From NCBI GenBank assembly GCA_016432645.1, contig CP066698.1, positions 133,062 through 197,061 on the forward strand: DNA of 64,000 bases, written 5' to 3'. The stretch is from Candidatus Falkowbacteria bacterium. GTDB taxonomy: Bacteria; Patescibacteriota; Patescibacteriia; Patescibacteriales; UBA12465. The notes beneath the pieces were generated by a model. That model saw only the letters and a program-made list of their open reading frames with translations, did no database searches and was not told where the DNA came from. Numbering within the stretch: the stretch's first letter is position 1; each line of letters begins with the position of its first letter. Made by a program: the position numbers and the translations under genes. Below, one piece after another: positions 16 through 63,827 of this stretch.

Positions 16-738
16 ATGAGTAATCCAAAAAATATTTCAATAAAGGGACTAAAAAAGCAGATTTTAAAAGAACGTAAGTTTTTAGATGATCTTTTATTAA
101 ATAATAATTTAAAAGAGATAGATAGAAATTGGAAGAAATATATAGTATCAATTTTTTTTATTGATATTTTGAAAATAACGGAAGATTTGGTTGTGTTGCT
201 TGAAAGTGGTTCTGGATATGTTGATTCAGTCGCAACAAGGTTGTTAGTTGAAAGATATATTTATTTTAAATATATTCTAAAAGGCAAAAATCAGGGCAGG
301 TTTAATAATTGGATACTAAAGAATTACAGGAAAGAAAAAAGTATGATTGGTAAAATATTAGGAAATATAAACAATCATAAGATAGAAGAAGAGAAAAAAT
401 TTATAAATAAAACAGAATTATCTAAACACATTAAATTTTTAAATGAAGAAATTAGTAAAGTTAGTAAGCAAACTACCAAAAGTGAGGAATTTGATTTTTC
501 TGATATGATTACAGAACTTGATGTTAATAGAAAAGATAAGTTGAATCATTATTTGTATTATGTTGTTTATCCTTTGCTAAGCAGTGACGTTCATGGCAGT
601 GCTCGTTCTATGGAGTCGCATTTCAAGAAGGAGGAGCAAAACGTTATCTTAAATGAGAAAAAAGATAAACCGGAGTTGTTGACTACGGCTCTTTATATTA
701 ACAAAGAAATTTTTAAAGTTGTAAAGAAAACGTTTTAA
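16..738 (+). CDS. hypothetical protein (240 aa, Lys/Asn/Glu-rich, probably all-helical)
   Basis: Long ATG ORF. Visibly more AT-rich than its neighbours. No family motif recognised. Confidence 0.5.
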   Translation: MSNPKNISIKGLKKQILKERKFLDDLLLNNNLKEIDRNWKKYIVSIFFIDILKITEDLVVLLESGSGYVDSVATRLLVERYIYFKYILKGKNQGRFNNWILKNYRKEKSMIGKILGNINNHKIEEEKKFINKTELSKHIKFLNEEISKVSKQTTKSEEFDFSDMITELDVNRKDKLNHYLYYVVYPLLSSDVHGSARSMESHFKKEEQNVILNEKKDKPELLTTALYINKEIFKVVKKTF

Positions 739-1343: not shown

Positions 1344-1410
1344 TTGACAAAAAAGCATACTTATAGTATGCTTTTTTGATTGTCAAAATCATATTTTCGA
1401 ACATTAAAAA
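1344..1410 (+). repeat. intergenic element A, copy 1 (TTGACA, AAAAAGCATAC/GTATGCTTTTT hairpin, TTGTCAA, leader motif)
   Basis: About 64/67 identical to 4917-4983, read directly. Confidence 0.85.
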
Positions 1411-1419
1411 TTAGTTAAA

Positions 1420-2013
1420 ATGAATCTCTTAAAAAAAATTCAAAAAAAGAATCCTAATTATGTCTTACAGAATAGACATTGGATTTCAGCCAAGAGGCAC
1501 GTGCCCGTAGTTCTAAAAGCGGCCATTTCTGGAGCGCTTTTTGCTTTAGCACAGTATTACGTAAACTACCGTGGTCTTTCCTTCGAGCCAGAAGCTAAGG
1601 AAGCGATTATGTTCTTAGCGATGGCCTTCTCCTTCTTTGTGTATGTCATCTTTGCCGGTTATGCAATTAACCGGGTTCTTGATGAATCCAAGGAAGTTTC
1701 CCGGGCTATAGTTCAAAAAGATCTGGATACCTTCTTATTGTACCGAGATGAGCAGTTGCCCATCTTAATTCATCTGCCCTTAGGAATTGTTTCCGGAGTT
1801 ATTATTTTTTTCTTGTTGTTTTTTCCTTTTCCCGATGAGTTTATCGGAATGACTTCCGTTTTTGCCATCGTGTTTATGATGTCGCTTTTATTCATTGTTA
1901 CCCAGGAATTGGATAATTATGAAAATAGCATCTGGTTTAAAGCTAAGACACCTGCCGATTGGTGGCAGATTGATATTGAAAAACATTTTGAGGGCAAAAG
2001 TGAGGCCCAGTAA
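1420..2013 (+). CDS. hypothetical integral membrane protein (197 aa, about 4 TM helices)
   Basis: ATG ORF directly downstream of repeat element A copy 1. Has hydrophobic segments AISGALFALAQYY, IMFLAMAFSFFVYVIFAGYAI, GIVSGVIIFFLLFF and VFAIVFMMSLLFIV. Confidence 0.6.
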   Translation: MNLLKKIQKKNPNYVLQNRHWISAKRHVPVVLKAAISGALFALAQYYVNYRGLSFEPEAKEAIMFLAMAFSFFVYVIFAGYAINRVLDESKEVSRAIVQKDLDTFLLYRDEQLPILIHLPLGIVSGVIIFFLLFFPFPDEFIGMTSVFAIVFMMSLLFIVTQELDNYENSIWFKAKTPADWWQIDIEKHFEGKSEAQ

Positions 2014-2044
2014 TTAATTGTTGAACCATAAAAAGACATAAATC

Positions 2045-2566
2045 ATGAAAGAAATTATTTTACCAAGCGGTGTTCATGTAAAAGTTTGGCAAAAAATTAA
2101 ATTGGGGACCTTCAAAAGTTTTTCCGATCTTCAAATGGAAGCCGAAAAGAGATTTATTTTTTGCTATCACTCAAAAGAATTGCTCAAAGAATCGGAATTT
2201 GCCGTTGCCGATAATGAGGAGCTGATTAGTTTAACGAAAATTACGATTGCTGATTTGCAAATTGGAGAAAATAGAAGATATCTTGATATCTGCTCGAAAG
2301 CTGAAAATCTGGGGCTAGGCATATGCTCCATTGAAGTTCCTCTTCAGCTATGTATTCAGGGACCAAATTATCCTAATCATGCATACGTTAATATCGCTAT
2401 TAATCCGATTCGGCATGGTGGCGGTTCAAATCTCCTAAACATTTTTCGTTTAGGCGGCTATCATAATCGCCCTGCTTTAGATACGAGAAATGTTATAGAG
2501 TTGCCTGATGGCAACCCTTTCCCGTTACAAGACAGCGAAGAAATCGTTTTTAGTATTATGAGTTAA
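2045..2566 (+). CDS. hypothetical protein (173 aa)
   Basis: ORF 32 nt after the previous gene and followed by the terminator at 2588-2617. No motif recognised. Confidence 0.55.
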   Translation: MKEIILPSGVHVKVWQKIKLGTFKSFSDLQMEAEKRFIFCYHSKELLKESEFAVADNEELISLTKITIADLQIGENRRYLDICSKAENLGLGICSIEVPLQLCIQGPNYPNHAYVNIAINPIRHGGGSNLLNIFRLGGYHNRPALDTRNVIELPDGNPFPLQDSEEIVFSIMS

Positions 2567-2587
2567 ATTATTGTGTCCGTTCAGAAT

Positions 2588-2617
2588 CCCCGAAGCTATC
2601 AAAGTTTCGGGGTTTTT
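2588..2617 (+). terminator. intrinsic terminator (CCCCGAAGCT/AGTTTCGGGG plus T5)
   Basis: GC-rich stem and T-run. 33/34 identical to 4360-4393. Confidence 0.75.
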
Positions 2618-2639
2618 ATTTGCCTAATTTAAGCTATTA

Positions 2640-2668
2640 TTGACACAATTCAGCTTTTATGATATTAT
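2640..2668 (+). promoter_or_regulatory. sigma70-like promoter TTGACA-17-TATTAT
   Basis: Hexamers and spacing read directly. Confidence 0.5.
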
Positions 2669-2712
2669 ATCCTGAACACCAAAGTTCTTTAAAATCATAA
2701 AAACTATCATAA

Positions 2713-3003
2713 ATGAAACAGATTCCTGTAAACAAAATGGTAATATTTTTTGCCGCCGGTTTTCAGCTCACCGAACACTTCTTTCTTCAGAAAGATGAAA
2801 TAACAGTATTTCCTGTTAATTCCTTTTGGAAAATTTTGCCCGATGTCGACAACCAAAAGATGGAGGTTATCCTTCAAAATTGCCAAGACAAAAGCAAAAA
2901 AACCGTGAGCTATGCTAAATTGGTCAGAATATTTTCCATGCAAGCAGACGAAATTGTAATTATGGAAGAAAAAGATGTTCCGATTATCATCAAAATTGAC
3001 TAA
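2713..3003 (+). CDS. hypothetical protein (96 aa)
   Basis: The plus strand is supported by the upstream TTGACA-17-TATTAT promoter (2640-2668) and the downstream hairpin terminator (3023-3050). The overlapping minus ORF 2707-3024 is rejected. Confidence 0.45.
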   Translation: MKQIPVNKMVIFFAAGFQLTEHFFLQKDEITVFPVNSFWKILPDVDNQKMEVILQNCQDKSKKTVSYAKLVRIFSMQADEIVIMEEKDVPIIIKID

Positions 3004-3022
3004 TCGGAAATTATCCGCCCAC

Positions 3023-3050
3023 AAAAAAGCATATCCCAGATATGCTTTTT
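3023..3050 (+). terminator. intrinsic terminator (AAAAAGCATATC/GATATGCTTTTT)
   Basis: Perfect hairpin and T5. The stem sequence is related to the element A hairpin. Confidence 0.65.
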
Positions 3051-3117
3051 GATGCTTAAAAATTATTGTTTAACCAGAAATTTTATTGTTTAATCTAAAA
3101 AATAGGAGAATTAAAAC

Positions 3118-3636
3118 ATGATTGATCTTAATGAAAAAAGACAGGCAATTATTGCCGTCGCCACCGAAATGTTTAACAAATTTGTTAGTATGCCTCCGGA
3201 ACTTCGCTCGGATGATAAACCGCGAACTGGTATCAAAGTTTTGGTTTGGGAACCAGGCACCAGGAACTTAATTTTATTTTCCGTTGCCGAGCCATCTGAA
3301 GCTGCTCAATTCTTCGTTGTTGAAAAAGCGGTCAGATCGCATATACTATCTGATATGTCATCGCAGAATTCTGAGCATGAGCCGAGTTTGCAGTATATGG
3401 GGAGTCTTTCTGTATTTTTGGACGAGCTTGAAGGCCGGGCTGATAAAAAAGGAATTTTGCTCGCCTCAACTTCTGGATTAAAAGGGGAAGAAGACGCTGC
3501 GATTAGTGCCTCTGTTTTAGCTGAGGCTGCTGATGCATCCTTTCAGGATATTTGTGACAATGTCGCTTCCAATTTTGGTAAATTGCCATTTTGGTATGAT
3601 AGCGAAGATAAGAGCTATTTTGATTTTTTGTTCTAA
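3118..3636 (+). CDS. hypothetical acidic protein (172 aa)
   Basis: ATG ORF preceded by AGGAGA 8 nt upstream. First gene of a two-gene unit. Confidence 0.55.
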   Translation: MIDLNEKRQAIIAVATEMFNKFVSMPPELRSDDKPRTGIKVLVWEPGTRNLILFSVAEPSEAAQFFVVEKAVRSHILSDMSSQNSEHEPSLQYMGSLSVFLDELEGRADKKGILLASTSGLKGEEDAAISASVLAEAADASFQDICDNVASNFGKLPFWYDSEDKSYFDFLF

Positions 3637-3651
3637 CAAAAAAAGGTACCA

Positions 3652-4335
3652 ATGAACGAAACTCTTAATCTTAAAATCGACGGAGTGGTAGAAGTCCCTG
3701 GCCGTCACATTTATGCTAAAACTCCGGAAGCGCTTGAAGCTTTAAAGGAGAAAATGAAAGCCCTGGGCTACAAATTGGAGGTGCGTCCTTCATCGAGTAG
3801 CGGCCAAATTTGGTTAGCAAAACTTCAGTCGTCCGACAAAAAGAAAAAAGGAAAAGTTTCTTTTTTCTCGCCTTCCTCTTCATTAGAGTCTATTTTCATT
3901 TATGAAGCTTGGCCGTGGTTTCCGCTCCGCCGCTCCAGGGAACTGGGCGAGGAAATTATCTCCGCCATTGGCATGATTACTGATTGCGGTTTCTATTATC
4001 AGGATGGGCGCCAGGAATTTTACAGTTTTCATTTGGAAAGAATGAGAATTTTTGTAGAAGGTCTTACCGATATTCCGATTGCCGAATGGGACGCCATGAT
4101 TAAAAAGGCGCCTTTATCCGGTCCTGGAATGGTTAAAGCAGTGGCCGCTTTTTGTCAAAATGTGCCAGATTATTGTGTCCAGGTTGAAGACTCGCCAAAT
4201 GTTGCTCATTTGCTTCTCGGATTTTCCAAAATCAGAAATCACCAACCGCGGACTGGATCTGAAATTGCTGCCATGAACAAGGCGGCTGCCAACAGGGAAA
4301 TTAGAAAAGATTTCCTTGACACTATTGGAGGATAA
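3652..4335 (+). CDS. hypothetical protein (227 aa)
   Basis: ORF 15 nt after the previous stop and followed by the terminator at 4360-4389. Confidence 0.55.
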   Translation: MNETLNLKIDGVVEVPGRHIYAKTPEALEALKEKMKALGYKLEVRPSSSSGQIWLAKLQSSDKKKKGKVSFFSPSSSLESIFIYEAWPWFPLRRSRELGEEIISAIGMITDCGFYYQDGRQEFYSFHLERMRIFVEGLTDIPIAEWDAMIKKAPLSGPGMVKAVAAFCQNVPDYCVQVEDSPNVAHLLLGFSKIRNHQPRTGSEIAAMNKAAANREIRKDFLDTIGG

Positions 4336-4359
4336 AGTTTTTAACATTAAAAAATCAAA

Positions 4360-4389
4360 CCCCGAAGCTATTAAAGTTTCGGGGTTTTT
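4360..4389 (+). terminator. intrinsic terminator, same family as 2588-2617
   Basis: ccccgaagctattaaagtttcggggttttt. Confidence 0.75.
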
Positions 4390-4406
4390 ATTTAGCTGAA
4401 TCTATT

Positions 4407-4435
4407 TTGACTTTACGCCCTTTTTATGGGATTAT
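4407..4435 (+). promoter_or_regulatory. sigma70-like promoter TTGACT-17-GATTAT, with the ATG 7 nt downstream (leaderless geometry)
   Basis: Read directly. No Shine-Dalgarno sequence is possible in this spacing. Confidence 0.45.
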
Positions 4436-4442
4436 AAATAAT

Positions 4443-4898
4443 ATGTCTAATCCCTCAATTACAACTGAAAAAAAATATCCTAAAGTCGGAATCGGCGTCA
4501 TGATTCAAAATGAAAAAGGCGAAGTTCTTTTAGGGTTAAGAAAAGGTTCTCATGGCTCAGGCGAATGGTCTTTTCCGGGAGGACATTTGGAGATTGGCGA
4601 AACAATTTTAGAAACAGCCAAAAGGGAAACGAAAGAAGAAACGAATTTAGACATTAATAAATTTGAACTTATCTCCGTGGCTGACGAGTTGAGTTATTTA
4701 AAAAGTGACGGCAAACATTATTTGAATATTGGAGTTAAAGGTTTGTATGAGGGCGGCGAGCCAATAGTTGCAGAAGTGGATAAATTCGAGAAATGGGAGT
4801 GGTTTAACCTTGATAATCTGCCTACTAATCTTTTTGAGGGAACAGAGCTGATGATTAATAATTTTAAAAATAAGACTATTTATAATCCTCTAATTTAA
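4443..4898 (+). CDS. Nudix (MutT-family) hydrolase
   Basis: Nudix box GGHLEIGETILETAKRETKEETNL (GX5EX7REUXEEXGU). I start at the internal ATG 4443 because the TTGACT-17-GATTAT promoter ends 7 nt upstream. Confidence 0.85.
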   Translation: MSNPSITTEKKYPKVGIGVMIQNEKGEVLLGLRKGSHGSGEWSFPGGHLEIGETILETAKRETKEETNLDINKFELISVADELSYLKSDGKHYLNIGVKGLYEGGEPIVAEVDKFEKWEWFNLDNLPTNLFEGTELMINNFKNKTIYNPLI

Positions 4899-4916
4899 GC
4901 CTAAATTTTCTTAATA

Positions 4917-4983
4917 TTGACAAAAAAGCATACTTATGATATGCTTTTTTGATTGTCAAAATCATATTTTCGAACTTTAAAAA
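4917..4983 (+). repeat. intergenic element A, copy 2
   Basis: ttgacaaaaaagcatacttatgatatgcttttttgattgtcaaaatcatattttcgaactttaaaaa. Confidence 0.85.
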
Positions 4984-4990
4984 ATATCAA

Positions 4991-5416
4991 ATGCAAACAA
5001 ATGAATTTTTAACTTCAATCATTTTTCCTAACGGCGCCCAATTTGGTCAGCCAGTCTATTATTCCGAGGCAACTAAATCTGAGTTGCCATGCAATCTCTT
5101 AGCCCATTCCTCCGGCGGCAATTTGGCGTTCTTTAAGAATTGTCATCTCACTGCTTATTTAAGCAAAAACAATGAGCTTATTTCCGCTGCGGATGTTGAA
5201 AAGGGTAAACACATTGTTACCGATGACCAGAAAAAGTACATCCTTGATGTTTATCTGGAGGTTAACGGTGATGTTATGTCTAACCATATTTCACTGGCCT
5301 CGCCACTCCCCAAAGGGACTGAGATGCAATACATGGAAGCTGTTTCCGAGGTTGATATCTTTGTTTTTTCTGGTTTCAGTGTAATCCTTTTTGACATCAA
5401 GAAAGAGTCATTTTAA
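4991..5416 (+). CDS. hypothetical protein (141 aa)
   Basis: The ORF-track start at 4949 lies inside repeat element A. The first ATG after the element is 4991. Confidence 0.5.
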   Translation: MQTNEFLTSIIFPNGAQFGQPVYYSEATKSELPCNLLAHSSGGNLAFFKNCHLTAYLSKNNELISAADVEKGKHIVTDDQKKYILDVYLEVNGDVMSNHISLASPLPKGTEMQYMEAVSEVDIFVFSGFSVILFDIKKESF

Positions 5417-5562
5417 AACATTTTAAAGCTTTGGCTTTAGTGCTTTGCCCCGGAATTGAAAAAGTTCCGGGGTTCTTATTTTGACTCTATATTTAAATTA
5501 TGAGATTATTTATATGTCCAAGTGAAAGTTAATTTATTGTCGAACCTTTAAAATTTATAACC

Positions 5563-5973
5563 ATGGAAAAGTATCGTCCCTTAACTTTACTGGCAGCCAT
5601 TTTGGTTGTCCTGTTGTTTACTGCTTTAATTATCTTTGGCGGGAAAGGTAAGAATGCTGTCGTTAAAGCCGATAAAGAACTCGGCTATACTATTGATAGT
5701 TTAAAAGCTGAAGGCGTCTTGACGCTTACTAACATTACGCATTTGTATCTGTTTGATCGCCTGCAAGATCAAACGGCTGATGGGAAAAAGGGATTTGTCA
5801 TTCTTGGTAATCGTCTCTATCAGGTTAACAACCTTGCTCAGGGATGCACACTGACGCCCGATGATGGCAATTTAGATTATCATTTAGAAGTCGTGCATAC
5901 CTCAGCCCCTGTCTATCAGCCAGGAGATTTTCTGGATACCTATGTAATCAGAAAATGCGCTGGGCGATATTAG
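5563..5973 (+). CDS. hypothetical N-terminally membrane-anchored or secreted protein (136 aa)
   Basis: N-terminal hydrophobic helix LTLLAAILVVLLFTALIIF. Has its own promoter (5481-5509) and the bidirectional terminator 5989-6028. Confidence 0.55.
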   Translation: MEKYRPLTLLAAILVVLLFTALIIFGGKGKNAVVKADKELGYTIDSLKAEGVLTLTNITHLYLFDRLQDQTADGKKGFVILGNRLYQVNNLAQGCTLTPDDGNLDYHLEVVHTSAPVYQPGDFLDTYVIRKCAGRY

Positions 5974-5988
5974 CCTTGAATTTTATTT

Positions 5989-6028
5989 AAAAAAAAGAAC
6001 CCCGAAACTTTTCAGCTTCGGGGTTTTT
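5989..6028. terminator. bidirectional intrinsic terminator between convergent genes
   Basis: A-run, CCCCGAA/TTCGGGG stem, T-run. Confidence 0.7.
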
Positions 6029-6045: not shown

Positions 6046-7065
6046 TTATCTTAAGTACTTTTTAGCAACTTCCAAAGCATTGCCGCCGTAGAAGTTTTTT
6101 TCTAAGAGATTCCAAAAACCAATTACCGCTGCCCCTAAATTATTTTTTGAATTATCCAAATAAACTTGAGAAAAGCCTTTGCCTTTGAAATTATAGGCTT
6201 GGCTATGTTTGGAGATTGGTTGGTAGTAGAATTCAGCGCCGGGCATTATGAATAGGCTGAGTTGTGGGCTGGGCAAAATTTTTATATTATTTTCAAAATT
6301 TTTTGCCGCTTGTCCGGAATTAAATAATCCTTCCGAACTTTCAACTTTTTCTTGCCAATCAGCATCATTAATCCAAGAGAATACCCGTTGGCGGTATTCC
6401 GGCAGACGTCCGCTTTCAGCATGAACTTTTAATTTTCCTCCTCGAAAACCCTTTTCTTCTTTGGATAAAATATCCATCGCTTTCAGAAAGTTTTTTGCTT
6501 GCGTTTCCACTAGCGCAAAACCTTGATAGTTTTCTTCTCGGATTTTTTCCAAGGAAGTCGGCCGCTTTTTAATGCCGTTGTCATACCGGAAAAGAGATCC
6601 GGCATGATTCTCATCGGCTGATAAGTGGATGCTGATTTGCGGTTTGATAACGCCTATTTTTTTAAGATTTAAAATAGTGTTTTCCACGCCGCTAGCATTG
6701 GGATTGAGAGAGACAAAGCCTAAGCCGGCAGTTAGAATTGTTATTTTTGTCTTGCCTCCAGAAGAGTAATTGATTAAATCAATCAAATTACCCAATTCTT
6801 TATAAAGGAAAGGGTCGCCGCCGCTCAGTCTGATTTCTCTAATTTTGGAAAAATTGATTTTGCTAAAGAAATTAAGATACCAATCAAAGCCGACTGTCCG
6901 TCCAAAATATGTTTCTGAGGACCAACAGTGGGCGCAGGTTCCTTCGCAAACCGGAAAAACAAAGATGACAATTTCCCAACCATCGGGATGCAAAACAGCT
7001 TGTTCCAGCACGGGCACATAGCCTTTTACTGGTTTAAATTCTGGTATTTTTTCCATATCATCCAA
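6046..7065 (-). CDS. radical SAM enzyme (339 aa, no SPASM motif seen)
   Basis: CxxxCxxC cluster CEGTCAHC near the N-terminus and an LSGGDPF glycine-rich SAM motif. Overlaps the upstream SPASM gene by about 30-40 nt, suggesting translational coupling. Confidence 0.75.
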   Translation of the reverse strand: MDDMEKIPEFKPVKGYVPVLEQAVLHPDGWEIVIFVFPVCEGTCAHCWSSETYFGRTVGFDWYLNFFSKINFSKIREIRLSGGDPFLYKELGNLIDLINYSSGGKTKITILTAGLGFVSLNPNASGVENTILNLKKIGVIKPQISIHLSADENHAGSLFRYDNGIKKRPTSLEKIREENYQGFALVETQAKNFLKAMDILSKEEKGFRGGKLKVHAESGRLPEYRQRVFSWINDADWQEKVESSEGLFNSGQAAKNFENNIKILPSPQLSLFIMPGAEFYYQPISKHSQAYNFKGKGFSQVYLDNSKNNLGAAVIGFWNLLEKNFYGGNALEVAKKYLR

Positions 7066-8438
7066 GTTTGAGCTTTTTTAGCAAAGAAACAAAAGGCTTC
7101 GTCTTTGTTCCAGATAGAGCCGCTTAAGAAATCGGCGTTCCGAGGGCAACCGCCACCGCAAGTTGATAAAGCGATGCAGTTATAGCATTCAGGCATGTTT
7201 AAGGGCGAACGAGTACTCCATTCCTGGAATACTGGATCATTGTTAGGGTTGGCATCGGCATTGAAAACAGTATTGTTAAACGTTTTACGGCTGCCCATAT
7301 ATCCCTGACAAATGCCAATTTGGCCATCCGTACTTACGCTCATTTGTTCGCCACAACCAGTGCAATCAGAATGTAGTAATTGTCGATTGAAAAAATTATA
7401 CATTTTGTTATTCATCCGTCTTTCGTAGACATTTGGATAATATTCCTGAATAATTTCTTGACTCCTGACAATCGCCGCCGCACACTGTTCCTCGTATTCC
7501 GGATCATATTCGTTGAAATTAGGAATAATGGAAACGTGGTTGAATCCCAAGGAGTCAATTTTTAGGTCGCCGAGAATAAAATGCAGGATTTCTTCCATGT
7601 GGGGCAAACTATTTTTGCTTAAGACACAGGCGACAGAAGGTTTTATACCGTGGCGCTGTAAGCAATTAATGCCATTCATAGTTTTTGCAAAACTACCCTT
7701 ACCGGAGTGAAATACTCGATTGTAATCATGGATTTCTTCTGGGCCGTCCAGCGATACCGCCACTAACACCTTGTACTTTTTAAGGACCAAGGCAATTTCG
7801 TCGGTAATTAAGGTCCCGTTAGTAATTATGACATTGTCCACTTTTTGGATAGTTCCGGATTTTGTTTTTTTTGCCAAATATTCCAAACTGAATTTGATTG
7901 TGGAAAAATTTTCTAACGGCTCACCTCCGTAAAAAACGATTGACGGTTTCTTAGGAAATTTTTTGTTTCCGATTATCTCCGCAAATTTATCAATAGTTGC
8001 CTGTGCTGTTTCCGTGTTCATAATGCGGCGCTGATAATCAGGTTTAATTGCGCCCTCAATGAAGCAGTAGCGACAATTTAAATTGCAATAATCGGTCATA
8101 TGCATGACCATGACGCGCACGTTCGGTTTGTTAGGGAAGCATTGTTGAACACTTTTTAGGTATTCAGTTTCGTTATAATTATTCGGAACTAAAATAGCCG
8201 AATTCATTAAACGAGAGAGTGTCGTGATGAATTGTTTCTTGTCCTTTTCGGGGACAGAAGTCAAGACATCATTAATTGATCGTTCGGTACTAGCCATCAG
8301 GTGTGGCAATAATTCTTTGGCGAAGTAAACAGTTTCAATCTTTAAAGCGTTGTAACCGCAAATAACTTCGTCCTTTTCCAGAAAATGTCCAAATAATGAC
8401 AATTTGAGAATCAAATTTCCATGTTTCTTTAAGTTCAT
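7026..8438 (-). CDS. radical SAM/SPASM-domain peptide-modifying maturase-like enzyme (470 aa)
   Basis: CNLNCRYC (C118/C122/C125). C-terminal canonical SPASM pattern C-x9-G-x4-C (CGEQMSVSTDGQIGIC) plus CX2CX5CX3C (CYNCIALSTCGGGC). About 105 aa of N-terminal extension precede the radical-SAM core. Confidence 0.85.
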   Translation of the reverse strand: MNLKKHGNLILKLSLFGHFLEKDEVICGYNALKIETVYFAKELLPHLMASTERSINDVLTSVPEKDKKQFITTLSRLMNSAILVPNNYNETEYLKSVQQCFPNKPNVRVMVMHMTDYCNLNCRYCFIEGAIKPDYQRRIMNTETAQATIDKFAEIIGNKKFPKKPSIVFYGGEPLENFSTIKFSLEYLAKKTKSGTIQKVDNVIITNGTLITDEIALVLKKYKVLVAVSLDGPEEIHDYNRVFHSGKGSFAKTMNGINCLQRHGIKPSVACVLSKNSLPHMEEILHFILGDLKIDSLGFNHVSIIPNFNEYDPEYEEQCAAAIVRSQEIIQEYYPNVYERRMNNKMYNFFNRQLLHSDCTGCGEQMSVSTDGQIGICQGYMGSRKTFNNTVFNADANPNNDPVFQEWSTRSPLNMPECYNCIALSTCGGGCPRNADFLSGSIWNKDEAFCFFAKKAQTWMIWKKYQNLNQ

Positions 8439-8501
8439 GACGTTTTTCCTTTCTTTTATGTTAAGTTAATGATTTTTTAAAGGACAATTATTTTTCTCCT
8501 A

Positions 8502-8529
8502 ATATTAAACCTTTTGCCAGATTTGTCAA
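8502..8529 (-). promoter_or_regulatory. sigma70-like promoter TTGACA-16-TAATAT for the radical-SAM pair
   Basis: Reverse complement of 8502-8529. The leader carries TTGTCCTTTAAAAAATC and a GAAAGGA RBS. Confidence 0.5.
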
Positions 8530-9386: not shown

Positions 9387-9479
9387 TTAGCAGGTCTTTT
9401 CTTTTGGCAACTTAGTTGCCGAAGCGGTTGCGGCAGCTTCACAACAGTAGGTTGCTGCCTTTTCTTTTCTTTTCTTCAT
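9387..9479 (-). CDS. unannotated 30-aa micro-ORF MKKRKEKAATYCCEAAATASATKLPKEKTC (candidate RiPP precursor)
   Basis: Translated by hand from the minus strand: ATG at 9479, TAA at 9389-9387. Has an upstream TTGATT-17-TAATTT promoter and a downstream hairpin plus T-run. Contains 3 Cys and is Ala/Thr-rich. No homology evidence. Confidence 0.35.
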   Translation of the reverse strand: MKKRKEKAATYCCEAAATASATKLPKEKTC

Positions 9480-11557: not shown

Positions 11558-11636
11558 TATTGACGAAAACAATGCCTCTATGGTATTATTTTTTATTACT
11601 TTAAAAACTGAATATTAACCATAAAAACACCACAAA
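11558..11636 (+). repeat. intergenic element B, copy 1 (TTGACG, hairpin, TTACTTTAAAAA, AACCATAAAA)
   Basis: Aligns with 15916-16000 over about 80 nt, with one 9-nt indel. Confidence 0.8.
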
Positions 11637-13292
11637 ATGAAAAACCAAAAACCTGTCAGTAATGATTTTTTAAGTGCCTGTTTGGCAAAAAATTATTCAA
11701 GCGCCGAAATTAAAGTAGCTTTTAAAAGCCTTGAAGCTCGGGATGATGAAAAGTTTCTTCGTTATTTTTTGGATTGTCAAAAATCTAAGAGCTCTAAAGT
11801 GCGCGAATTAGCTTGGGAGCTGGCGATTGATGAAATCAAAAAAGATGTGCTCTGGCAAAATTTTGCTTTTCTGATTGAATGTGAGCATTCGGAAAATGTT
11901 CGCATTGCGAAGTTGGCCGACACTCTTCTTTATCAAGCGATGCAGCATAAGGATCGCAAATATCGTCTGGATAAAATTGATTATTTAATCGCTTGCTATC
12001 GGTCGTCAGATGAGCAAAAACGAGAGCGAGTTGATTATTTGGTTAATGATATCGATTATGCCTTGTATTATCCTCATCTCGATTCTTTAGTAGCTTGGTC
12101 TAATGACGAAAATGTTAACGTCCGTGCCTTCGCTCGTGAAAAAGCTATCGGAGCCTTGGGACAACATTTTGTAAAAAATGAAGAATTGGGATTGCGCTTT
12201 GAGTTCATTATGAGCTGTGCTCTTTCAGACGACGATAAATTTGGCCGCGCCAAAGAGCTAAGCTTTAGCGCCATGTATTTTTGGCCGGTGGAAAAAGTTA
12301 AGCCTCATTTTGCTTATTTGTTGGCTTGCCGAGATCGTATTCATGGTTGGCCTATGGCTGACTCGATGAGACCGGCGATGCGTGTCATCGCCATTTTATC
12401 TGCCGATGAACAAAAAGCTTATTTGCCCTATTTGTTAGAGTGTTGGCATTTTAATAGCGATGTGGAGATGACTCTGAAACTTATCATTAAGATTATTGCT
12501 CCTTTGCCAACCGCCCAATTAGCGGAATACATTGACGTGCTGATTGCTTGCCAAAATTTTTCCAAATTACAGTCGCAGGCCAAACGCTTAGCTTTGTCTA
12601 TTAAAGTTGAAGAATTAGCAGTTTGGGAGCAGAAACTGGATGCAATTATTGAAGAACTTTCCAATTTATCCGGCTACCATTTTTCTTTTTTGACCCTGCA
12701 GTTAAAAATGAAATTACTGGCCTCGCTGAACTCTAAGGATTTATCAAATCAAATCCGCTACATTTTTGCTTGCCATAACCATGCAGATTCGTACATTCAA
12801 GCGCAAGCTAAAAAGTTGGCTCGTTCCATTAAAGCACGAGATTTAAAGGGGCAGGCAGCAAAAATAGCCCAGAGAGCTTTTTCTTCTCAAGTTAATGAAT
12901 TTAATCTGCGGCATATGAGCCTAGCTCTATGCTTCAAAATTAAGACCGATGAATTGTTGCTTGATTTGCGAAAGCTGGTTGATGATCATTGCGATCCGGA
13001 TAAATACAATTTCTTGAAAGAGCTGGCTTTCCGCATTAAGCCGAATAAATTTAATCCGGGAAAAATGTTTGAACTTAACGGTTATTTCGGACTCAATTAT
13101 TTGCTGGCTTTAAGAGCAATTATGTATTGGGATGCCAAAAAGTTGAAACGTTACTCAGACAAGATTTTTACTTGTCGTTTTAACAACAATCCTGACATCA
13201 AGGTTTTGGCCAATCGCTTGTACGACCGAATTCAAAGAGCTAAATTTAACCCTGAGCGGATAGCAGCTGTCAAAAATTTGGCGGTTGCCTAA
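11637..13292 (+). CDS. HEAT/PBS-lyase-like repeat protein with a conserved Cys in each repeat (551 aa)
   Basis: At least 10 degenerate repeats with about 35-45 aa period, e.g. YFLDCQKSKSSKVRELAWELA, FLIECEHSENVRIAKLA, YLIACYRSSDEQ, YLLACRDR, YLLECWHFNS, VLIACQNFSKLQSQAKRLA and YIFACHNHADSYIQAQAKKLA. Confidence 0.6.
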   Translation: MKNQKPVSNDFLSACLAKNYSSAEIKVAFKSLEARDDEKFLRYFLDCQKSKSSKVRELAWELAIDEIKKDVLWQNFAFLIECEHSENVRIAKLADTLLYQAMQHKDRKYRLDKIDYLIACYRSSDEQKRERVDYLVNDIDYALYYPHLDSLVAWSNDENVNVRAFAREKAIGALGQHFVKNEELGLRFEFIMSCALSDDDKFGRAKELSFSAMYFWPVEKVKPHFAYLLACRDRIHGWPMADSMRPAMRVIAILSADEQKAYLPYLLECWHFNSDVEMTLKLIIKIIAPLPTAQLAEYIDVLIACQNFSKLQSQAKRLALSIKVEELAVWEQKLDAIIEELSNLSGYHFSFLTLQLKMKLLASLNSKDLSNQIRYIFACHNHADSYIQAQAKKLARSIKARDLKGQAAKIAQRAFSSQVNEFNLRHMSLALCFKIKTDELLLDLRKLVDDHCDPDKYNFLKELAFRIKPNKFNPGKMFELNGYFGLNYLLALRAIMYWDAKKLKRYSDKIFTCRFNNNPDIKVLANRLYDRIQRAKFNPERIAAVKNLAVA

Positions 13293-13321: not shown

Positions 13322-13358
13322 AACCCCGAGACTAGTTAGTTTCGGGGTTTCTTTTTTT
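13322..13358 (+). terminator. intrinsic terminator (AACCCCGAGACT/AGTTTCGGGGTT plus T-run)
   Basis: Same CCCCGA..TCGGGG stem family. Confidence 0.7.
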
Positions 13359-15915: not shown

Positions 15916-16000
15916 TATTGACGAAAACAATACCTCGTGGTATTGTTTTTTATTACCTTAAAAATTAAATATTTAGTATTAACCATAAAATTAGTGAAAA
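15916..16000 (+). repeat. intergenic element B, copy 2
   Basis: attgacgaaaacaatacctcgtggtattgttttttattaccttaaaaatt...aaccataaaa. Its hairpin doubles as the terminator of 13405-15897. Confidence 0.8.
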
Positions 16001-17347: not shown

Positions 17348-17376
17348 TTGACAAAAATTGATACTTTATGTTAATA
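17348..17376 (+). promoter_or_regulatory. sigma70-like promoter TTGACA-17-TTAATA
   Basis: Read directly. The leader motif AGAACTTTAAAAATT follows at 17391-17405. Confidence 0.5.
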
Positions 17377-17432
17377 TCTGGAGTTGTTTTAGAACTTTAA
17401 AAATTAATATTCACCAATAAAAATTGTTTAAA

Positions 17433-25728: not shown

Positions 25729-26619
25729 TTACATTTGAGCAATGATGCTTTTTAAATATTCACCCAAGTGAGCAGAAGCACTTTTGGCGCGCTCAAGATT
25801 TTCTTCGTGAGAATGTTTTTCTTTGTAGCCATTAGTAACAAAACCAAGGCCAAGAATTTCAATCCCATAAAGAGACGCAATGTAAGCCTCGGGGAGCATG
25901 CTCATGCCGACTACGCCAGCACCGGTTTTACTCAAAATTTCCTTGTCATATTTATTGCCTTCAAATTGGGGGCCGCGTAACATCGCGTGTCCAGTTTTTT
26001 TAGCAATAACTAAATCCCCTTGGGATTTAAGGGCGATGTCAATTAGATTTTGACTAATAGTCTCATCAGCCGAGCAGAATTCATCGCCCCATAAGGGCAT
26101 AATTGGAGCGAAAACGGTTACGAAACCATCAATAATGGCAATGTCACCAACTTGAAGTTCCGGGTCGGGAAAAGGGAAAGTGCCGCCGGCTTTCCAAAAC
26201 TCATCCGCTAATCGTGAAAATCTTTCCGGTTGACATTTTAAAGTGCCAACCGCACTGGTGATAATAATTTTTTTTACTCCCAGATGAAAAAGCATTTCTA
26301 CTTGCAGACGCACCATTTTTAGCCAGCTTTTGCTGAATGGTTTTTCATAGAGATGGAGGCGTCCATTTAGAGCAAGAACTTGCTTGCCGGCGATTTTGCC
26401 GACAATTAAAGTTCTTTTATGACCCTCAACAACTGTGGGCAGATTCTTAAATCCAGGGATAGTGGAAAAGGGAATTTCAATTTTTTCTTCAAATTCCAAA
26501 GTGTCGCCCCAGCCGCTTCCCAGTACTACACCAATTGCTGTTTCTTCAATGTGTTGGTGTTGGCAGTTGCCAATAAATTCAGCAGCTACTCCAGCCGCTT
26601 TAACTCTTTCTTTGTTCAT
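25729..26619 (-). CDS. purine nucleoside phosphorylase (PNP/MTAP family)
   Basis: GSGWGD, TVVGHKRTLIVGKIAGKQVLALNGRLHLYE and VGMSMLPEA match PNP family signatures. Confidence 0.8.
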   Translation of the reverse strand: MNKERVKAAGVAAEFIGNCQHQHIEETAIGVVLGSGWGDTLEFEEKIEIPFSTIPGFKNLPTVVEGHKRTLIVGKIAGKQVLALNGRLHLYEKPFSKSWLKMVRLQVEMLFHLGVKKIIITSAVGTLKCQPERFSRLADEFWKAGGTFPFPDPELQVGDIAIIDGFVTVFAPIMPLWGDEFCSADETISQNLIDIALKSQGDLVIAKKTGHAMLRGPQFEGNKYDKEILSKTGAGVVGMSMLPEAYIASLYGIEILGLGFVTNGYKEKHSHEENLERAKSASAHLGEYLKSIIAQM

Positions 26620-26724
26620 TTTTTCAGTTTTAAAGGTTCTACAATATAAAATTTATTTTCTCATGATATTATGATTTTTTTGGGTTTATGTCAAATAGAG
26701 TTATAATATAAAAATAATAATTAT

Positions 26725-27048: not shown

Positions 27049-28203
27049 TTATTCAGAAAAAAATTCAATTGGACGATAGCCGTATTGGTTGACGGCTCTA
27101 GTAGCCCAGTGGTTGTCTGCTAAGGTTAAAATTAATGTTGAGCGAATTTTGCTCGGATTGGCAAAGGCGGCAAATTTATTGACTCCGATTACCATGCGGT
27201 CGCTGCCGTTTACCGGCTGAAAAATACTGTAGGCTGGAGGAGTTGACATTAAAATACCTTCTTTGGTGTAGGGCTGGTCCTGATAAACTTCAAACAGCTT
27301 TAGAGCTGGCTCTCCCTGGTCGTCTTTTTTACGCGCAAATCTCAGATAGGGAAGCCAGTGTATCCACTCGGTAATTTTTTCGCCGTTAGCGAATACAAAA
27401 CCGATTTGATTTTCCAGAGGCTGCAGTTTTGAGAGATATAACGCGCGTGAAGGACCGCCCGGTAAATCGTAGCGGAGATTTTTAATCATGTCAGCTTCTG
27501 ACATAAAATGGCTGGCGATAAAATTTTCTTTGTAGGTGCTTTTACCCATGAAGGTTGTGAAATGACGCATATGGTCAGAGCGGCAAGTGTCATGAAAGAA
27601 AATATTTTCACCATTTGTCAGGATTGTTTCTAAATCAAGCTTTGTTTGCTCGATTGGAAGTTCGTAAGAATAACAACCGGCGCTGCAAGCCAAAAATAAT
27701 TGGCGAGTGATGTAATTTACGATTACCGAGAAAATCGGCAAACCCTTACGCACACAAGTGATAGCGGAACTGCCGCCCGTTATTGGCAGAGGAGTGCCAA
27801 ATTTAGCTTCCCACATTTCTTTGAATTCCTGGTTGTTTACAGTTTCTAAAACCGACTTGGTTTTATCAGGAGTTGATTCCAGAGCTGCTTTAATTTGCGA
27901 AGAGCGATCGGTTGGATCGCTGATAAAGACAGTGCGAAAAAGGTGATGATCTTCTGGATGAGAAAAACGAATTTTTTCTCTCCCACCGGCTTCCTCGGTA
28001 ATGATTGCGCTTAGATGATCATACTCTTGCAAAGTTTCAATAATAGTAATTTCGGCCATGGCATCCATGCCCAAAGTGTCGCTTTTGCCATATTTCAGAA
28101 TAGGCCTTAAAGCTTCTTCGACCGTTGACTGCCAGAAGGCATAAGTTGATTTGGAGATAGCCCCTAAAACAGCGTTACAGTGGCTTTTTTCGATTCCTTC
28201 CAT
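27049..28203 (-). CDS. hypothetical protein, possibly a divergent IMPase/FBPase-superfamily phosphatase (384 aa)
   Basis: ITEEAGG followed about 25 aa later by FISDPTDRSS resembles the EE...DPxD(G/S)(T/S) metal-binding motifs. The second half does not match. Confidence 0.4.
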   Translation of the reverse strand: MEGIEKSHCNAVLGAISKSTYAFWQSTVEEALRPILKYGKSDTLGMDAMAEITIIETLQEYDHLSAIITEEAGGREKIRFSHPEDHHLFRTVFISDPTDRSSQIKAALESTPDKTKSVLETVNNQEFKEMWEAKFGTPLPITGGSSAITCVRKGLPIFSVIVNYITRQLFLACSAGCYSYELPIEQTKLDLETILTNGENIFFHDTCRSDHMRHFTTFMGKSTYKENFIASHFMSEADMIKNLRYDLPGGPSRALYLSKLQPLENQIGFVFANGEKITEWIHWLPYLRFARKKDDQGEPALKLFEVYQDQPYTKEGILMSTPPAYSIFQPVNGSDRMVIGVNKFAAFANPSKIRSTLILTLADNHWATRAVNQYGYRPIEFFSE

Positions 28204-28401
28204 GATTTTTTCCTTTCTTTTATTTAGTTATTAGAATTGTTAAAAAACTCGATTTTCCCCACACTTTACCAGTAAATTTAGAAATTGTCAAATAGTAATA
28301 TTTGACTAATTATAAATTTTATAGTAGTTTAATTAATTGTGAATTTAGAACTTTAAAAATAATAAATAGTATAAACAAAAATCTAAAAAACATGGGACAT
28401 C

Positions 28402-29244
28402 ATGAAAACCTTGGAGTTAGAAGAAACAACTGGAAAACTGTATTGGATGCAGCGCCAGTATTTGGAAACCAAACCCAGCTGGCAGGTTCTGCCGGTTGGC
28501 GAGCCGGTACTCGGCTACCTAATGAATGCCGACTTATTGGTTGGTCCGTTTCAAAAGGAATGGCCTCGAATTCGCGCTGATGAAAGTGGTGTTGGCTCTG
28601 TTCTGATAGAATGGGGTTATGAATTAGAGTATCATGGCAATTGCGCATTTGAATTTGGCAATGAATATCTTGTGCGCAAAAGCAGCCCAGTTATTTGCCA
28701 GGAGATTGAACGTCCGTTACTGATTGTCGGCGCTTTGCGTGGCCGTCAAAAAGAAGCTGCGGGGCTACCAAAAAAACTTTTTTTTCACGACAAATTTATT
28801 CTGGACACCGGAGAAAATTATACGGGAAAAATTGTTATTGATTCTGAGATTGACGAAGTTTTTGTCAAAATTGAAGAAGCTAAAAAAGAGTGGCGGCGGC
28901 GCAAGCAAGCGCAGTTTGCTGATGAATTTTTTCGGCTTTCAAGAGACTCCGGCGTCAGTTCAACGATTGACGTCGGCGGCGAAACCGGGTTTGAGCTGGA
29001 AGATGTTCCCAGTCATTTTTTTGAGTTATATCGAAAATGTCTGTCAACTGTTTTTGACGCTCGAAGTAGTATTACCCCGACTTATCAATTAGTCTTGGTT
29101 AATAAGGCGCGGATAGAAGTGGAAGAGAGACGGATAATTTATATCTCCGTGCCCGAAGAATACAAGAAATTCATCATTGGTAAGGGAGGGGAAAATATTA
29201 AGGCTCTCCAGGAAAAATTGGGTTGTAAAATTGATTTGAAGTAA
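28402..29244 (+). CDS. hypothetical protein with a C-terminal KH RNA-binding domain (280 aa)
   Basis: IIGKGGENIKALQEKLGCKI contains the KH GxxG loop. The N-terminal 220 aa are unassigned. Confidence 0.6.
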   Translation: MKTLELEETTGKLYWMQRQYLETKPSWQVLPVGEPVLGYLMNADLLVGPFQKEWPRIRADESGVGSVLIEWGYELEYHGNCAFEFGNEYLVRKSSPVICQEIERPLLIVGALRGRQKEAAGLPKKLFFHDKFILDTGENYTGKIVIDSEIDEVFVKIEEAKKEWRRRKQAQFADEFFRLSRDSGVSSTIDVGGETGFELEDVPSHFFELYRKCLSTVFDARSSITPTYQLVLVNKARIEVEERRIIYISVPEEYKKFIIGKGGENIKALQEKLGCKIDLK

Positions 29245-33044: not shown

Positions 33045-33761
33045 TTAAAAAAAAGCGGTAACGGTTAAGGGAGATAATAAGCCGATAACAGCGTTTTCTT
33101 CTTGAAAAATTTTAAATCCTTGGCGACTAATCCAGATTCCGCCAATAAATTCCAACTCCTCCTCCTGCTTGGGAGCTAAAAACACCAAGCGGTAGTGCAT
33201 GCGCCAACTTAAAGGCAGGCCGGGCGTGTTTAGGGGCATATAAAATTTCTGCAAGTAACTTTCACCGGAATAGATAAATTTTATAATTCCGGTTCTCGTT
33301 GTGAAACCATTTTTGTAGCCGAGACGTCGCCATTCCGGGTGCCAGATTTTGGTTACGCCTTTAGTGTTTTTGACACAGAAGGGTTGGTTCCAATTTAATT
33401 TTCTTTCAAAATTTTGTGAATTCAAGGGCTCCCACAATCCCAGCTCAACCCCGGCTTTAAAGTCAATCTCAAATTCGTGCTGCGAGGCGGAATATAATTT
33501 ATTTTCCAGCCAGGGAAGTTCGTCGCGCAAGAATGAGCCGGCCAAATTTTTAATTATTTGGGCGGACTTCAGGCCGCTCCCGTAGTTAAAGGCATTAAGC
33601 GAGCCATTTGGGGAACAGTCCAAGGCGATAAAAACATCCTGGTTTTCCGGCTTTGGCAGTTTAGATACCAGTTGTTTGGCTTGAAAGACGTGCGATTCAA
33701 AAACTTGCAGAATTTCATTGGAAGGAACAAATTTTTCATTTTTACTTTTACTTTTTTTCAT
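33045..33761 (-). CDS. hypothetical protein (238 aa)
   Basis: Long ORF with no recognised motif. Preceded by the orphan promoter-terminator unit 33811-34008. Confidence 0.5.
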   Translation of the reverse strand: MKKSKSKNEKFVPSNEILQVFESHVFQAKQLVSKLPKPENQDVFIALDCSPNGSLNAFNYGSGLKSAQIIKNLAGSFLRDELPWLENKLYSASQHEFEIDFKAGVELGLWEPLNSQNFERKLNWNQPFCVKNTKGVTKIWHPEWRRLGYKNGFTTRTGIIKFIYSGESYLQKFYMPLNTPGLPLSWRMHYRLVFLAPKQEEELEFIGGIWISRQGFKIFQEENAVIGLLSPLTVTAFF

Positions 33762-33810
33762 GATACTTAATTTTAAGAGTGAAACAATATTTAATTATTA
33801 AGGTTCTTTT

Positions 33811-34036: not shown

Positions 34037-34065
34037 TTGACAAAAATATATCTTTGTGATAATTT
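34037..34065 (+). promoter_or_regulatory. sigma70-like promoter TTGACA-17-TAATTT for the lipoprotein operon
   Basis: Read directly. Confidence 0.5.
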
Positions 34066-34130
34066 AGGGCTACTAGACCTTTAATATTTTAATATTAAAA
34101 ATAATCTTAAACTGATAAAATTCTGAAAAG

Positions 34131-44665: not shown

Positions 44666-44757
44666 AATTAATCCCCCAAAGAACCGCTTCTGCTATTGAC
44701 AGGAGAGGTTTTTTAGTATATATTTAAACCCACGTACATTTTAAAAAATAGATAATC

Positions 44758-49678: not shown

Positions 49679-50143
49679 TTAATCAATTTCTTGGGCTTTT
49701 TTAAAAGCATCCTTGATTTTTTGCAATTCTTGCAAATTTGTTTCCGCCTGGTTGGCCGCGTTTTGCGCTTTTATGGCCAGTTTTGTGTAGTGGCTGGATA
49801 AATTTTCCTGCGTGTTTTTTTCTTTTTCCAAATTCTGTTGCTTAACTTTCATAAAAGTGGGCAAGAGCAGGTCAATTTCTAACTGCCTGATTTTAACAGG
49901 AATTTTCCAATCAATTCGTAGCACTGCGATAAATAAAGTAGTTAAAATAATCAGAAAATACCATAAGCCTGGATTGTGGATAATGTGCCCCTTTCTTTTC
50001 AGCCACGATTGAAATAAAAGGATAGCAAGGCCGATTATTATTATCATCGATACTTTGATGGCGATAATCAATGGACGTCTTTTTTTCTTCTTAAGAAAAT
50101 CGCTGGCGTCTTCCGCTAGGGTTGTCAAGCTAATTTTTTCCAT
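49679..50143 (-). CDS. hypothetical membrane protein with a coiled-coil C-terminus (154 aa)
   Basis: Two TM helices, then a charged helical tail. Bidirectional hairpin at about 49626-49668. Confidence 0.5.
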   Translation of the reverse strand: MEKISLTTLAEDASDFLKKKKRRPLIIAIKVSMIIIIGLAILLFQSWLKRKGHIIHNPGLWYFLIILTTLFIAVLRIDWKIPVKIRQLEIDLLLPTFMKVKQQNLEKEKNTQENLSSHYTKLAIKAQNAANQAETNLQELQKIKDAFKKAQEID

Positions 50144-50345
50144 TTTAATTTATTTATGTGAGACAATTTTAAATGAACAATCAGTTAATACTAGAATAAT
50201 TATGTGTTTTTGTCAACGCTTGTATTTTTTTCTTTGATTAAATTAAATTTTTGTTTTTTTATTGCCTTTTAAGACCAAACAATATACAATATTAAAGTAA
50301 GCGGAGCCCGAATCCAGGGTTTTGCGTTAAATTTAATTTTTCAAT

Positions 50346-63807: not shown

Positions 63808-63827
63808 ATAATTTAACCCTTAAAAAT

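Follow-up and report, generated by a model that had tools for sequence, protein, structure and literature searches.

A candidate translation-initiation signal in Falkowbacteria leaders

The DNA analysed here is a 64,000-nucleotide (nt) stretch, hereafter the window, from a Candidatus Falkowbacteria bacterium (Patescibacteria, or Candidate Phyla Radiation, CPR), and the element under study is a recurrent motif, approximately GAACYTTTAAAA, that lies in the 5' leaders of many of its genes. The motif most plausibly acts at the level of RNA, as a translation-initiation or enhancer element that recruits ribosomes without Shine-Dalgarno (SD) pairing, and would represent the strong form of an A-rich signal that runs through the lineage; we place the probability of this reading at roughly 55%. 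It is suggested by the combination of several features of the sequence: the strand specificity of the motif, its register relative to start codons, the occurrence of promoter-independent copies inside operons, a genome-wide continuum of A-rich start contexts, the rarity of SD sequences and the unstructured nature of the leaders.

The window has a G+C content of 38–40% and contains two groups of genes, namely operon-borne housekeeping genes (MetRS, CTP synthase, NifS-like, DEAD helicase, DnaX) and numerous orphans without a Pfam match. Loci of relatives are designated below by L numbers; scans of genome and metagenome collections with the KH protein gave only four loci each, too few for large-sample statistics.

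Definition and statistical support of the motif

In its degenerate form the motif reads (G/T)(A/T)AC-N-(T/A)T(T/A)AAAA, often with ATTGT directly 5'. Every site listed in a first-pass annotation of this DNA was located at its reported position and strand. These include three copies of the 12-mer GAACTTTAAAAA, which occurs exactly three times in the window (4972, 17392 and 28348, all on the plus strand), each time between a TTGAC(A/T)-17/18-TAnnnT promoter and a start codon. The same annotation had overlooked copies at 2023–2034, 11616–11627, 15980–15991, 26628–26639(-), 33795–33806(-), 50167–50178(-) and 63814–63826.

The significance of the motif had been argued from the 12-mer alone, on the grounds that far fewer than one occurrence would be expected by chance. 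The expected count for a single 12-mer such as GAACTTTAAAAA is indeed 0.15 in the window, but 127 distinct 12-mers are present at least three times in this AT-rich DNA, against a mean of 101 and a maximum of 148 in third-order Markov simulations. Because repeated 12-mers are common in the Markov null too, the triple occurrence proves nothing by itself.

The abundance of repeated 12-mers lends some weight to the idea that the motif is functionless, a product of AT-rich leader composition and of hitch-hiking with duplicated promoter-leader modules. Two paralogous pairs among the listed sites are in fact copies of one such module each: the segments 1344–1413 and 4917–4986 are 94% identical over 70 nt, and those beginning at 11560 and 15918 form the second pair. 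Moreover, the same module is found before non-homologous genes both in the window and in locus L010. We nevertheless regard a functionless origin as improbable, given the behaviour of a 12-column weight matrix that was trained on 15 window sites and applied to upstream intergenic DNA with a cut-off of at least 9.5 bits. In the window the matrix returned 14 sense and 4 antisense matches, where dinucleotide shuffles gave 1.65 expected (maximum 6, n = 300). Outside the training set, the relatives yielded 16 sense and 3 antisense matches, with 1.83 expected from shuffles (maximum 7, n = 300). The excess over dinucleotide shuffles is thus about 8-fold and strongly strand-biased, the few antisense intergenic matches being accounted for by divergent genes. 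In sense upstream intergenic DNA the dinucleotide AC is found two bases 5' of the A-rich core WTWAAA 16 times, versus 5.2 expected, and in the relatives the density of matrix matches is about nine times higher in leaders than in coding DNA. Further points against hitch-hiking are the clustering of copies 6–10 nt from the ATG and their presence at promoter-less junctions inside operons, both described below. In addition, unrelated modules resemble each other only in the two promoter boxes (-35 and -10) and in the motif, and the motif is kept while flanks and leader length change.

Unsupervised approaches did not recover the motif. Motif discovery by expectation maximisation with a zero-order background was uninformative: with upstream regions as input it settled on GC-rich terminator stems, and with the last 50 nt on the GC-rich ends of upstream coding regions. 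A comparison of k-mers between intergenic and coding DNA returned mainly TTGACAAA, corresponding to the -35 box, and CCCCGAAA/TTCGGGG terminators. Overall, the motif is real despite the unsound chance argument: its frequency exceeds that in shuffled sequence and, in relatives, that in coding DNA, and its position is biased relative to start codons.

Position of the motif in leaders

The distances of the motif to the -10 box and to the start codon had been described as variable. That description is incomplete, as the distances are bimodal: the motif lies either 6–10 nt from the ATG, or 20–52 nt from the ATG and 6–17 nt after the -10 box. The spacing from -10 box to motif spans 6–35 nt overall.

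The proximal class, in which the motif ends 6–10 nt before the ATG, is exemplified by eight copies in the window and by several more in relatives. On the plus strand, GAACATTAAAAA at 1399–1410 (13.3 bits), within the 70-nt repeat 1344–1413, is separated by 9 nt from the ATG of the gene 1420–2013; its paralogue, the exact 12-mer GAACTTTAAAAA at 4972–4983, lies 7 nt before the ATG at 4991. The copy GAACCATAAAAA at 2023–2034(+) (14.6 bits) is promoter-less and operon-internal, occupying the 31-nt gap between the genes 1420–2013 and 2045–2566, 10 nt before the ATG of the latter. The sequence GAACCTTTAAAA is found twice: at 5542–5553(+) (15.6 bits), with ATTGTC directly 5' and a gap of 9 nt to the ATG at 5563, and at 26628–26639(-), with ATTGTA directly 5' and a gap of 8 nt to the start codon (ATG) of the purine-nucleoside phosphorylase (PNP) gene 25729–26619(-). 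The remaining examples are TAACCATAAAAA at 11616–11627(+) (12.4 bits) and TAACCATAAAAT at 15980–15991(+), which end 9 nt before the ATGs at 11637 and 16001, respectively, and GTACATTTTAAAAAA at 44734–44748(+), which has 9 nt on either side, separating it from the -10 box of the promoter 44696–44724 and from the ATG at 44758.

Copies of the second class lie within about 10 nt of the predicted transcription start. They include TTACTTTAAAAA at 11596–11607(+) and TTACCTTAAAAA at 15953–15964(+), each 6 nt after the -10 box of its promoter (11560–11589 and 15918–15946, respectively), the module of the latter also being present in L010 and L013. The exact 12-mer GAACTTTAAAAA is placed 14 nt after the -10 box of the promoter 17348–17377 (copy at 17392–17403(+)) and 17 nt after that of the promoter 28302–28330 (copy at 28348–28359(+), in the leader of the KH-domain gene 28402–29244). 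AGACCTTTAATA at 34075–34086(+) follows the -10 box of the promoter 34037–34063 by 11 nt, and TGTCCTTTAAAA at 8475–8486(-), in the leader of the radical-SAM operon, lies 16 nt after its -10 box with an SD of the AGAAAGGA type downstream. Leaders with such a 5'-proximal copy usually hold a weaker second copy at ribosome-binding-site (RBS) distance, as seen at 11616, at 15980, at 17412–17423(+) (CACCAATAAAAA, 9 nt before the ATG at 17433) and in L010 (AAACTTTAAAAA).

Three further sites were mapped. The weaker motif GTTCTTTAAAAT at 2684–2695(+) (8.8 bits) has ATCATAAAAA after it, with 9 nt separating the end of ATCATAAAAA from the ATG at 2713. On the minus strand, GAACCTTAATAA at 33795–33806 belongs to the leader of 33045–33761(-), and GTTCATTTAAAA at 50167–50178 lies 9 nt after the -10 box of the promoter 50188–50216(-), in the leader of 49679–50143(-).

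The start-codon register of the motif extends beyond these strong copies. When the matrix was scored as a function of the gap to the start codon in 252 genes from the window and relatives, the mean peaked at exactly 9 nt (-7.4; baseline approximately -11), and the same peak was seen in genes without a strong match. Among operon-internal genes, 8/117 carry a match of at least 7 bits in -32..-1, compared with 1.4 expected, and junctions between housekeeping genes are among them. The leaders are predicted to be essentially unstructured (minimum free energies between -0.3 and -10.7 kcal/mol), and the motif and the rest of the leader are unpaired to about the same degree. A structured RNA element was considered and rejected, as folding gave no consistent structure and Rfam no family: covariance models of Rfam 15 at gathering score produced 0 matches in the window and 10 related loci.

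Start-codon context and rarity of Shine-Dalgarno sequences

SD-like sequences (GGAG, GAGG or AAGGA in -22..-4) precede only 14/252 genes, or 12/176 in a smaller set. Since the existing SDs are of the AGAAAGGAG type, the anti-SD tail of the 16S rRNA is probably intact. In three leaders the motif lies directly 5' of a true SD, namely in L013 (TTACCTTAAAATTTGGAGGAATTAAA-ATG), in L010 (AACCATAAAATTGGAGGAATTAAAC-ATG) and at 8475–8486 in the window.

An A-rich signal occupies the position at which the motif is found in its proximal form. In genes of the window, A accounts for 65–78% at -13..-11, with T at 53% at -15; across 176 genes of window and relatives, A reaches 57–64% at -13..-11. The peak holds in genes without a strong motif and in 64 operon-internal genes; taken over all gene classes, operon-internal genes included, A makes up 60–78% there.

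Two additional features of the start region were observed. The base just before the ATG (-1) is T in approximately 48–61% of genes of window and relatives and A is depleted there, constituting a second, unexplained start-context signal. Separately, the leader end AAAAGAAAGGAAAAA(C/A)(G/A)TC-ATG is almost identical in two unrelated genes (8436–8457(-) and 28201–28221(-)), the radical-SAM gene 7026–8438 and the orphan 27049–28203, for which the BLASTP E value is 0.013; this shared end contains an SD of the AGAAAGGA type, among the few in the window.

Association with strong promoters

Most motif-bearing genes are preceded by a near-consensus promoter, TTGAC(A/T/G)-16..18-TAnnnT. An example is TTGACA-17-TATGCT at 1344–1372(+), and further strong promoters, apart from those already given, lie at 2640–2668, 4917–4945 and 5481–5509 on the plus strand and at 8502–8529 and 26666–26694 on the minus strand. 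In the window the motif is present in 12/16 genes with such a promoter versus 4/28 without (Fisher p = 1.7e-4), and in relatives in 11/22 versus 7/42 (p = 0.008). The motif had been proposed to define a regulon of orphan or accessory genes. It was correctly reported as absent before corA and the DEAD helicase gene, but what it follows is the possession of an own strong TTGACA promoter, and the conserved PNP gene and the clade-wide KH-domain gene are among its carriers; in that form the regulon proposal lacks support.

The link to consensus TTGACA promoters, and the location of the motif downstream of the -10 box, would also be expected of a DNA operator or half-site that acts as a roadblock and controls an accessory-gene regulon. 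This we consider very unlikely: the motif shows no dyad or direct-repeat symmetry, it has a single orientation, its distance from the -10 box is as loose as noted above, and copies exist at operon junctions that have no promoter. A LexA/Cheo box (CGAAC-N4-GTTCG), suggested by the CGAAC half, was rejected because the second half-site is lacking. The promoters do possess real inverted repeats, elsewhere than in the motif, in the spacer and -10 region. The first-pass annotation had left open an operator half-site, a protein-binding site in the leader RNA or a translation enhancer. The last of these is favoured by the orientation of the motif, its clustering at 6–10 nt, its presence before 8/117 internal genes, its common register in all gene classes and its occurrence 5' of SDs, whereas the operator half-site is disfavoured.

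The inverted repeats are perfect and fall within the spacer or extended -10 region of strong promoters at 1349–1377, 4922–4950, 3021–3050, 15924–15949 and 11566–11592; repeats of the same type occur in relatives, upstream of L010 5366 and 7651 and of L013 1362. Examples are AAAAAAGCATACT-TAT-AGTATGCTTTTTT and AAAACAATACC-TCGT-GGTATTGTTTT. Flanked by A- and T-runs, they resemble weak bidirectional terminators or operators, and if a regulon signal exists at the DNA level, they are a better candidate for it than the leader motif.

It is also conceivable that the motif is itself part of a promoter, either as a -35 box for an extracytoplasmic function (ECF) sigma factor (GAAC/GGAACTT-like) or as a -10-like TTTAAA serving very short leaders. 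The -35 consensus sequences of ECF factors such as those of the sigma-E and sigma-W families look similar to GAACTT, syntenic relatives encode an ECF sigma factor, and the segments starting at 1344 and 4917 have TTGTCA 17 nt upstream of (A/T)TTAAA. At the remaining sites the TTTAAA part has no -35 partner upstream, and no conserved -10-like partner is seen 16–17 nt downstream of the motif. Moreover, for proximal copies, which stop 6–10 nt short of the ATG, any ECF -10 box would have to lie within the coding region, and in most cases the motif is already downstream of a complete consensus sigma-70 promoter. A promoter element is accordingly the least probable of the explanations that we have weighed.

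Promoter and leader also recur as a unit. A module of about 50–70 nt is found before non-homologous genes, as in the window at 11560–11607 and in L010 at approximately 4580–4627, and the modules 1344–1413 and 4917–4986 are likewise matched upstream of L010 5366. As one module precedes non-homologous genes in several genomes and places, expression modules appear to be copied between accessory genes.

Conservation in relatives

The motif is retained in orthologous leaders at 51–84% protein identity. For the KH-domain gene, orthologs of 68–75% protein identity share an almost unchanged block that runs from TTGACT to GAACTTTAAAAA, while the remaining leader differs in sequence and length; orthologs of about 51% identity still have GAACATTAATAA or a tandem pair. 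The motif before gene 17433 is invariant across 4 orthologous leaders except for one inserted T. For the 111-aa gene downstream of the 34075 site, AGACCTTTAA is invariant in 5 genomes. For the 241-aa gene of the 33795 site, GAAC(C/T)TTAATAA is kept in 4 orthologs and varies only at the variable column of the matrix. PNP orthologs hold AAACC(T)TAAAAA at 5–8 nt from the start codon although indels occur further upstream. Expressed as column conservation, the motif compares with the other upstream columns, promoter hexamers included, as 1.00/0.82, 0.97/0.70, 0.83/0.74 and 0.72/0.57; for PNP the values are 0.67 and 0.66.

The conserved leader of the KH-domain gene contains a further feature. An out-of-frame ATG lies 10 nt 5' of the start of this gene (window 28392–28404) and is conserved in 8/10 orthologs, in 7 of which the overlapping frame is open for 61–63 codons (orthologs with the out-of-frame ATG: L001, L003, L004, L006, L007, L008 and L014). 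It could represent a small overlapping open reading frame (ORF) or a coupled upstream ORF.

Such conservation, together with the sense bias and leader location of the motif, raises the question of whether it is read by a dedicated trans-acting regulator. The target would be bound by an RNA-binding protein, for example the clade-conserved KH-domain protein, whose own leader copy is among those preserved at 51–75% identity, or by a small RNA carrying UUUUAAAGUUC, with a seed complementary to GAACUUUAAAA, and the regulon would consist of self-promoted accessory genes. Two copies per leader are common, the enrichment at strong TTGACA promoters fits a set of this kind, and the string ATTGT-N-GAACC-WTWAAAA in three unrelated leaders, like a 17-mer shared by two, is longer than generic A/U-richness. 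Weaker versions in the same register are found before every gene class, though, and operon-internal junctions between housekeeping genes carry the motif, which fits a general signal better; in the window, neither a complementary small RNA nor a regulator was found. We therefore treat a dedicated regulator as a possible but unlikely explanation.

Proposed mode of action

According to the favoured interpretation as a translation signal, the lineage would seldom use SD pairing, and a copy that ends about 6–10 nt 5' of a start codon would function as a ribosome-binding signal, being the strong consensus form of the A-rich -13..-11 signal carried by most genes. Recognition would be by the ribosome, through bS1 or rRNA, and the motif may raise translation or mRNA stability, as judged from its position only. 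In longer leaders the second copy, at most some 10 nt from the predicted 5' end of the transcript, probably serves for standby binding or enhancement and might, in analogy to STAB-SD elements, also shield the 5' end from decay. The best copies belong to genes that have a strong TTGACA promoter to themselves, for the most part orphan accessory genes, and promoter and leader may travel together as a high-expression module that is duplicated and joined to unrelated genes.

Several observations weigh against this interpretation. Half of the strong copies lie 20–52 nt from the ATG, with no start codon at the right distance, so that the role of the 5'-proximal copies needs the extra assumption of a standby or stabilising function. 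A recognisable copy at the RBS position is present in only about one-fifth of genes, and gene starts in window and relatives are partly heuristic. Several of the matches in relatives are orthologs of sites used to train the matrix, and the counts are to that extent not fully independent. Motif-like sequences also occur between a stop codon and a terminator hairpin (4342–4353, L013 2864–2875 and L010 6509–6520), and a role in translation start does not explain them. Finally, generic S1-type A/U-rich enhancers show less sequence specificity than the 5' part of the motif (GAAC, ATTGT). A 17-mer, TTTAGAACTTTAAAAAT, is common to the unrelated leaders of 17433 and 28402, and a 16-mer, AATTGTCCTTTAAAAA, is common to the radical-SAM leader of the window (the 8475 copy) and the 3' end of a gene in L013 (2864–2875). 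Shared strings of this length could point to a dedicated binding factor.

A more far-reaching version of the translation hypothesis takes this specificity at face value. In a lineage with little use of SD pairing and with 16S rRNA that lacks several surface helices, the leader element ATTGT-N-GAACYTTTAAAA would then be the primary recognition signal of the mRNA, read by a lineage-specific partner and used twice per mRNA, once for placing the start and once for loading or protection at the 5' end. The partner would be either a segment of rRNA (an extended 3' tail, for instance, or the h26 region conserved in Parcubacteria) or a dedicated protein, of which the clade-conserved KH-domain protein is one example. 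We hold this version to be doubtful; if true, it would amount to a new kind of bacterial ribosome-mRNA recognition. Pairing of the motif to the tRNA T-loop or to the 3' tail of 16S rRNA was set aside: the nucleotide preceding GAAC varies, and relative to the SD, AACC is located on the wrong side. Neither tRNA genes in the window nor rRNA genes in the window or related loci were found.

Comparison with known systems

The STAB-SD of the Bacillus cryIIIA type is a 5'-proximal ribosome-binding stabiliser that involves true SD pairing with the 3' end of 16S rRNA. The present motif is similar in that an RBS-like sequence lies near the mRNA 5' end (6–17 nt after the -10 box) and far from the start codon, with no start codon directly after it. 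It is not SD-like, however, and any stabilising effect is purely inferential.

By sequence, the closest described element is the epsilon enhancer of T7, the core of which, AACUUUAA, is identical in the three exact 12-mers. Between the epsilon sequence UUAACUUUA(A) and GAACTTTAAAAA, 8/10 positions (AACUUUAA) are identical, and TTACTTTAAAAA and TTACCTTAAAAA are close to it; the motif consensus differs at the 5' end and its A-run is longer. Both elements reside in unstructured leaders, and in three leaders here the motif lies, like epsilon, a few nt upstream of a genuine SD. Unlike epsilon, most copies have no SD partner and sit at the SD position themselves, only those 3 leaders having a downstream SD. 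The partner of epsilon, as Olins and Rangwala are said to have proposed in 1989, is helix 17 of 16S rRNA (nt 458–466 in Escherichia coli). As for published descriptions, the epsilon enhancer of T7 gene 10 is given as UUAACUUUAA (PMC9590205), and A/U-rich enhancers have been described as working via ribosomal protein S1 (PMC10953258). The 16S rRNAs of CPR bacteria are reported to be without the helix 17 region (PMC9297842), which makes a mechanism based on complementarity to this helix unlikely here. For this reason, and because most copies have no SD, membership in the T7 epsilon family is not claimed.

The 'group B' genomes defined with GeneMarkS-2 provide a close parallel in usage, as they possess an A-rich non-SD motif about 7–9 nt from the start, which is found before first and internal genes and is hence not a promoter (PMC6028130). 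The window resembles this group, which is of the Bacteroidetes type with Kozak-like A-rich upstream regions, in the rarity of SDs, in an A-rich signal at a fixed short distance (peak at -13..-11, with the motif end some 9 nt ahead of the ATG) and in its presence before both first and operon-internal genes. The differences are that the group belongs to the Fibrobacteres-Chlorobi-Bacteroidetes (FCB) lineage whereas the present host belongs to the CPR/Parcubacteria, and that the strong copies here carry a specific 5' extension, (ATTGT)-N-GAAC/TTAC, for which group B has no described counterpart, and also occur as a second copy near the 5' end of the transcript.

CPR/Patescibacteria have reduced ribosomes; some Parcubacteria are reported to have no anti-SD motif, and CPR bS1 to be shortened to 3–4 domains (PMC9297842). 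A replacement for SD pairing is not described in the literature searched, and a conserved motif at the RBS position is a testable candidate for such a signal. In practical terms, it could improve the prediction of start codons in CPR genomes and assist the design of expression cassettes for the few cultivable members. Should the motif be merely a local flavour of A/U-rich enhancer, it would be a useful but ordinary annotation feature.

Neighbouring features

A Cys-rich micro-ORF of 30 aa, MKKRKEKAATYCCEAAATASATKLPKEKTC, is encoded at 9387–9479(-), 5' of an orphan gene for a 242-aa protein and of two radical-SAM genes (6046–8438, minus strand). This layout resembles that of a locus for ribosomally synthesised and post-translationally modified peptides. 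Small orphan genes in the window are closed by closely similar intrinsic terminators (AACCCCGAAGCT...AGTTTCGGGGTT followed by a T-run), located at 2585–2621, 4357–4393, 5445–5481, 5998–6025(-) and 13322–13349, and two copies of this terminator family share 95% identity.

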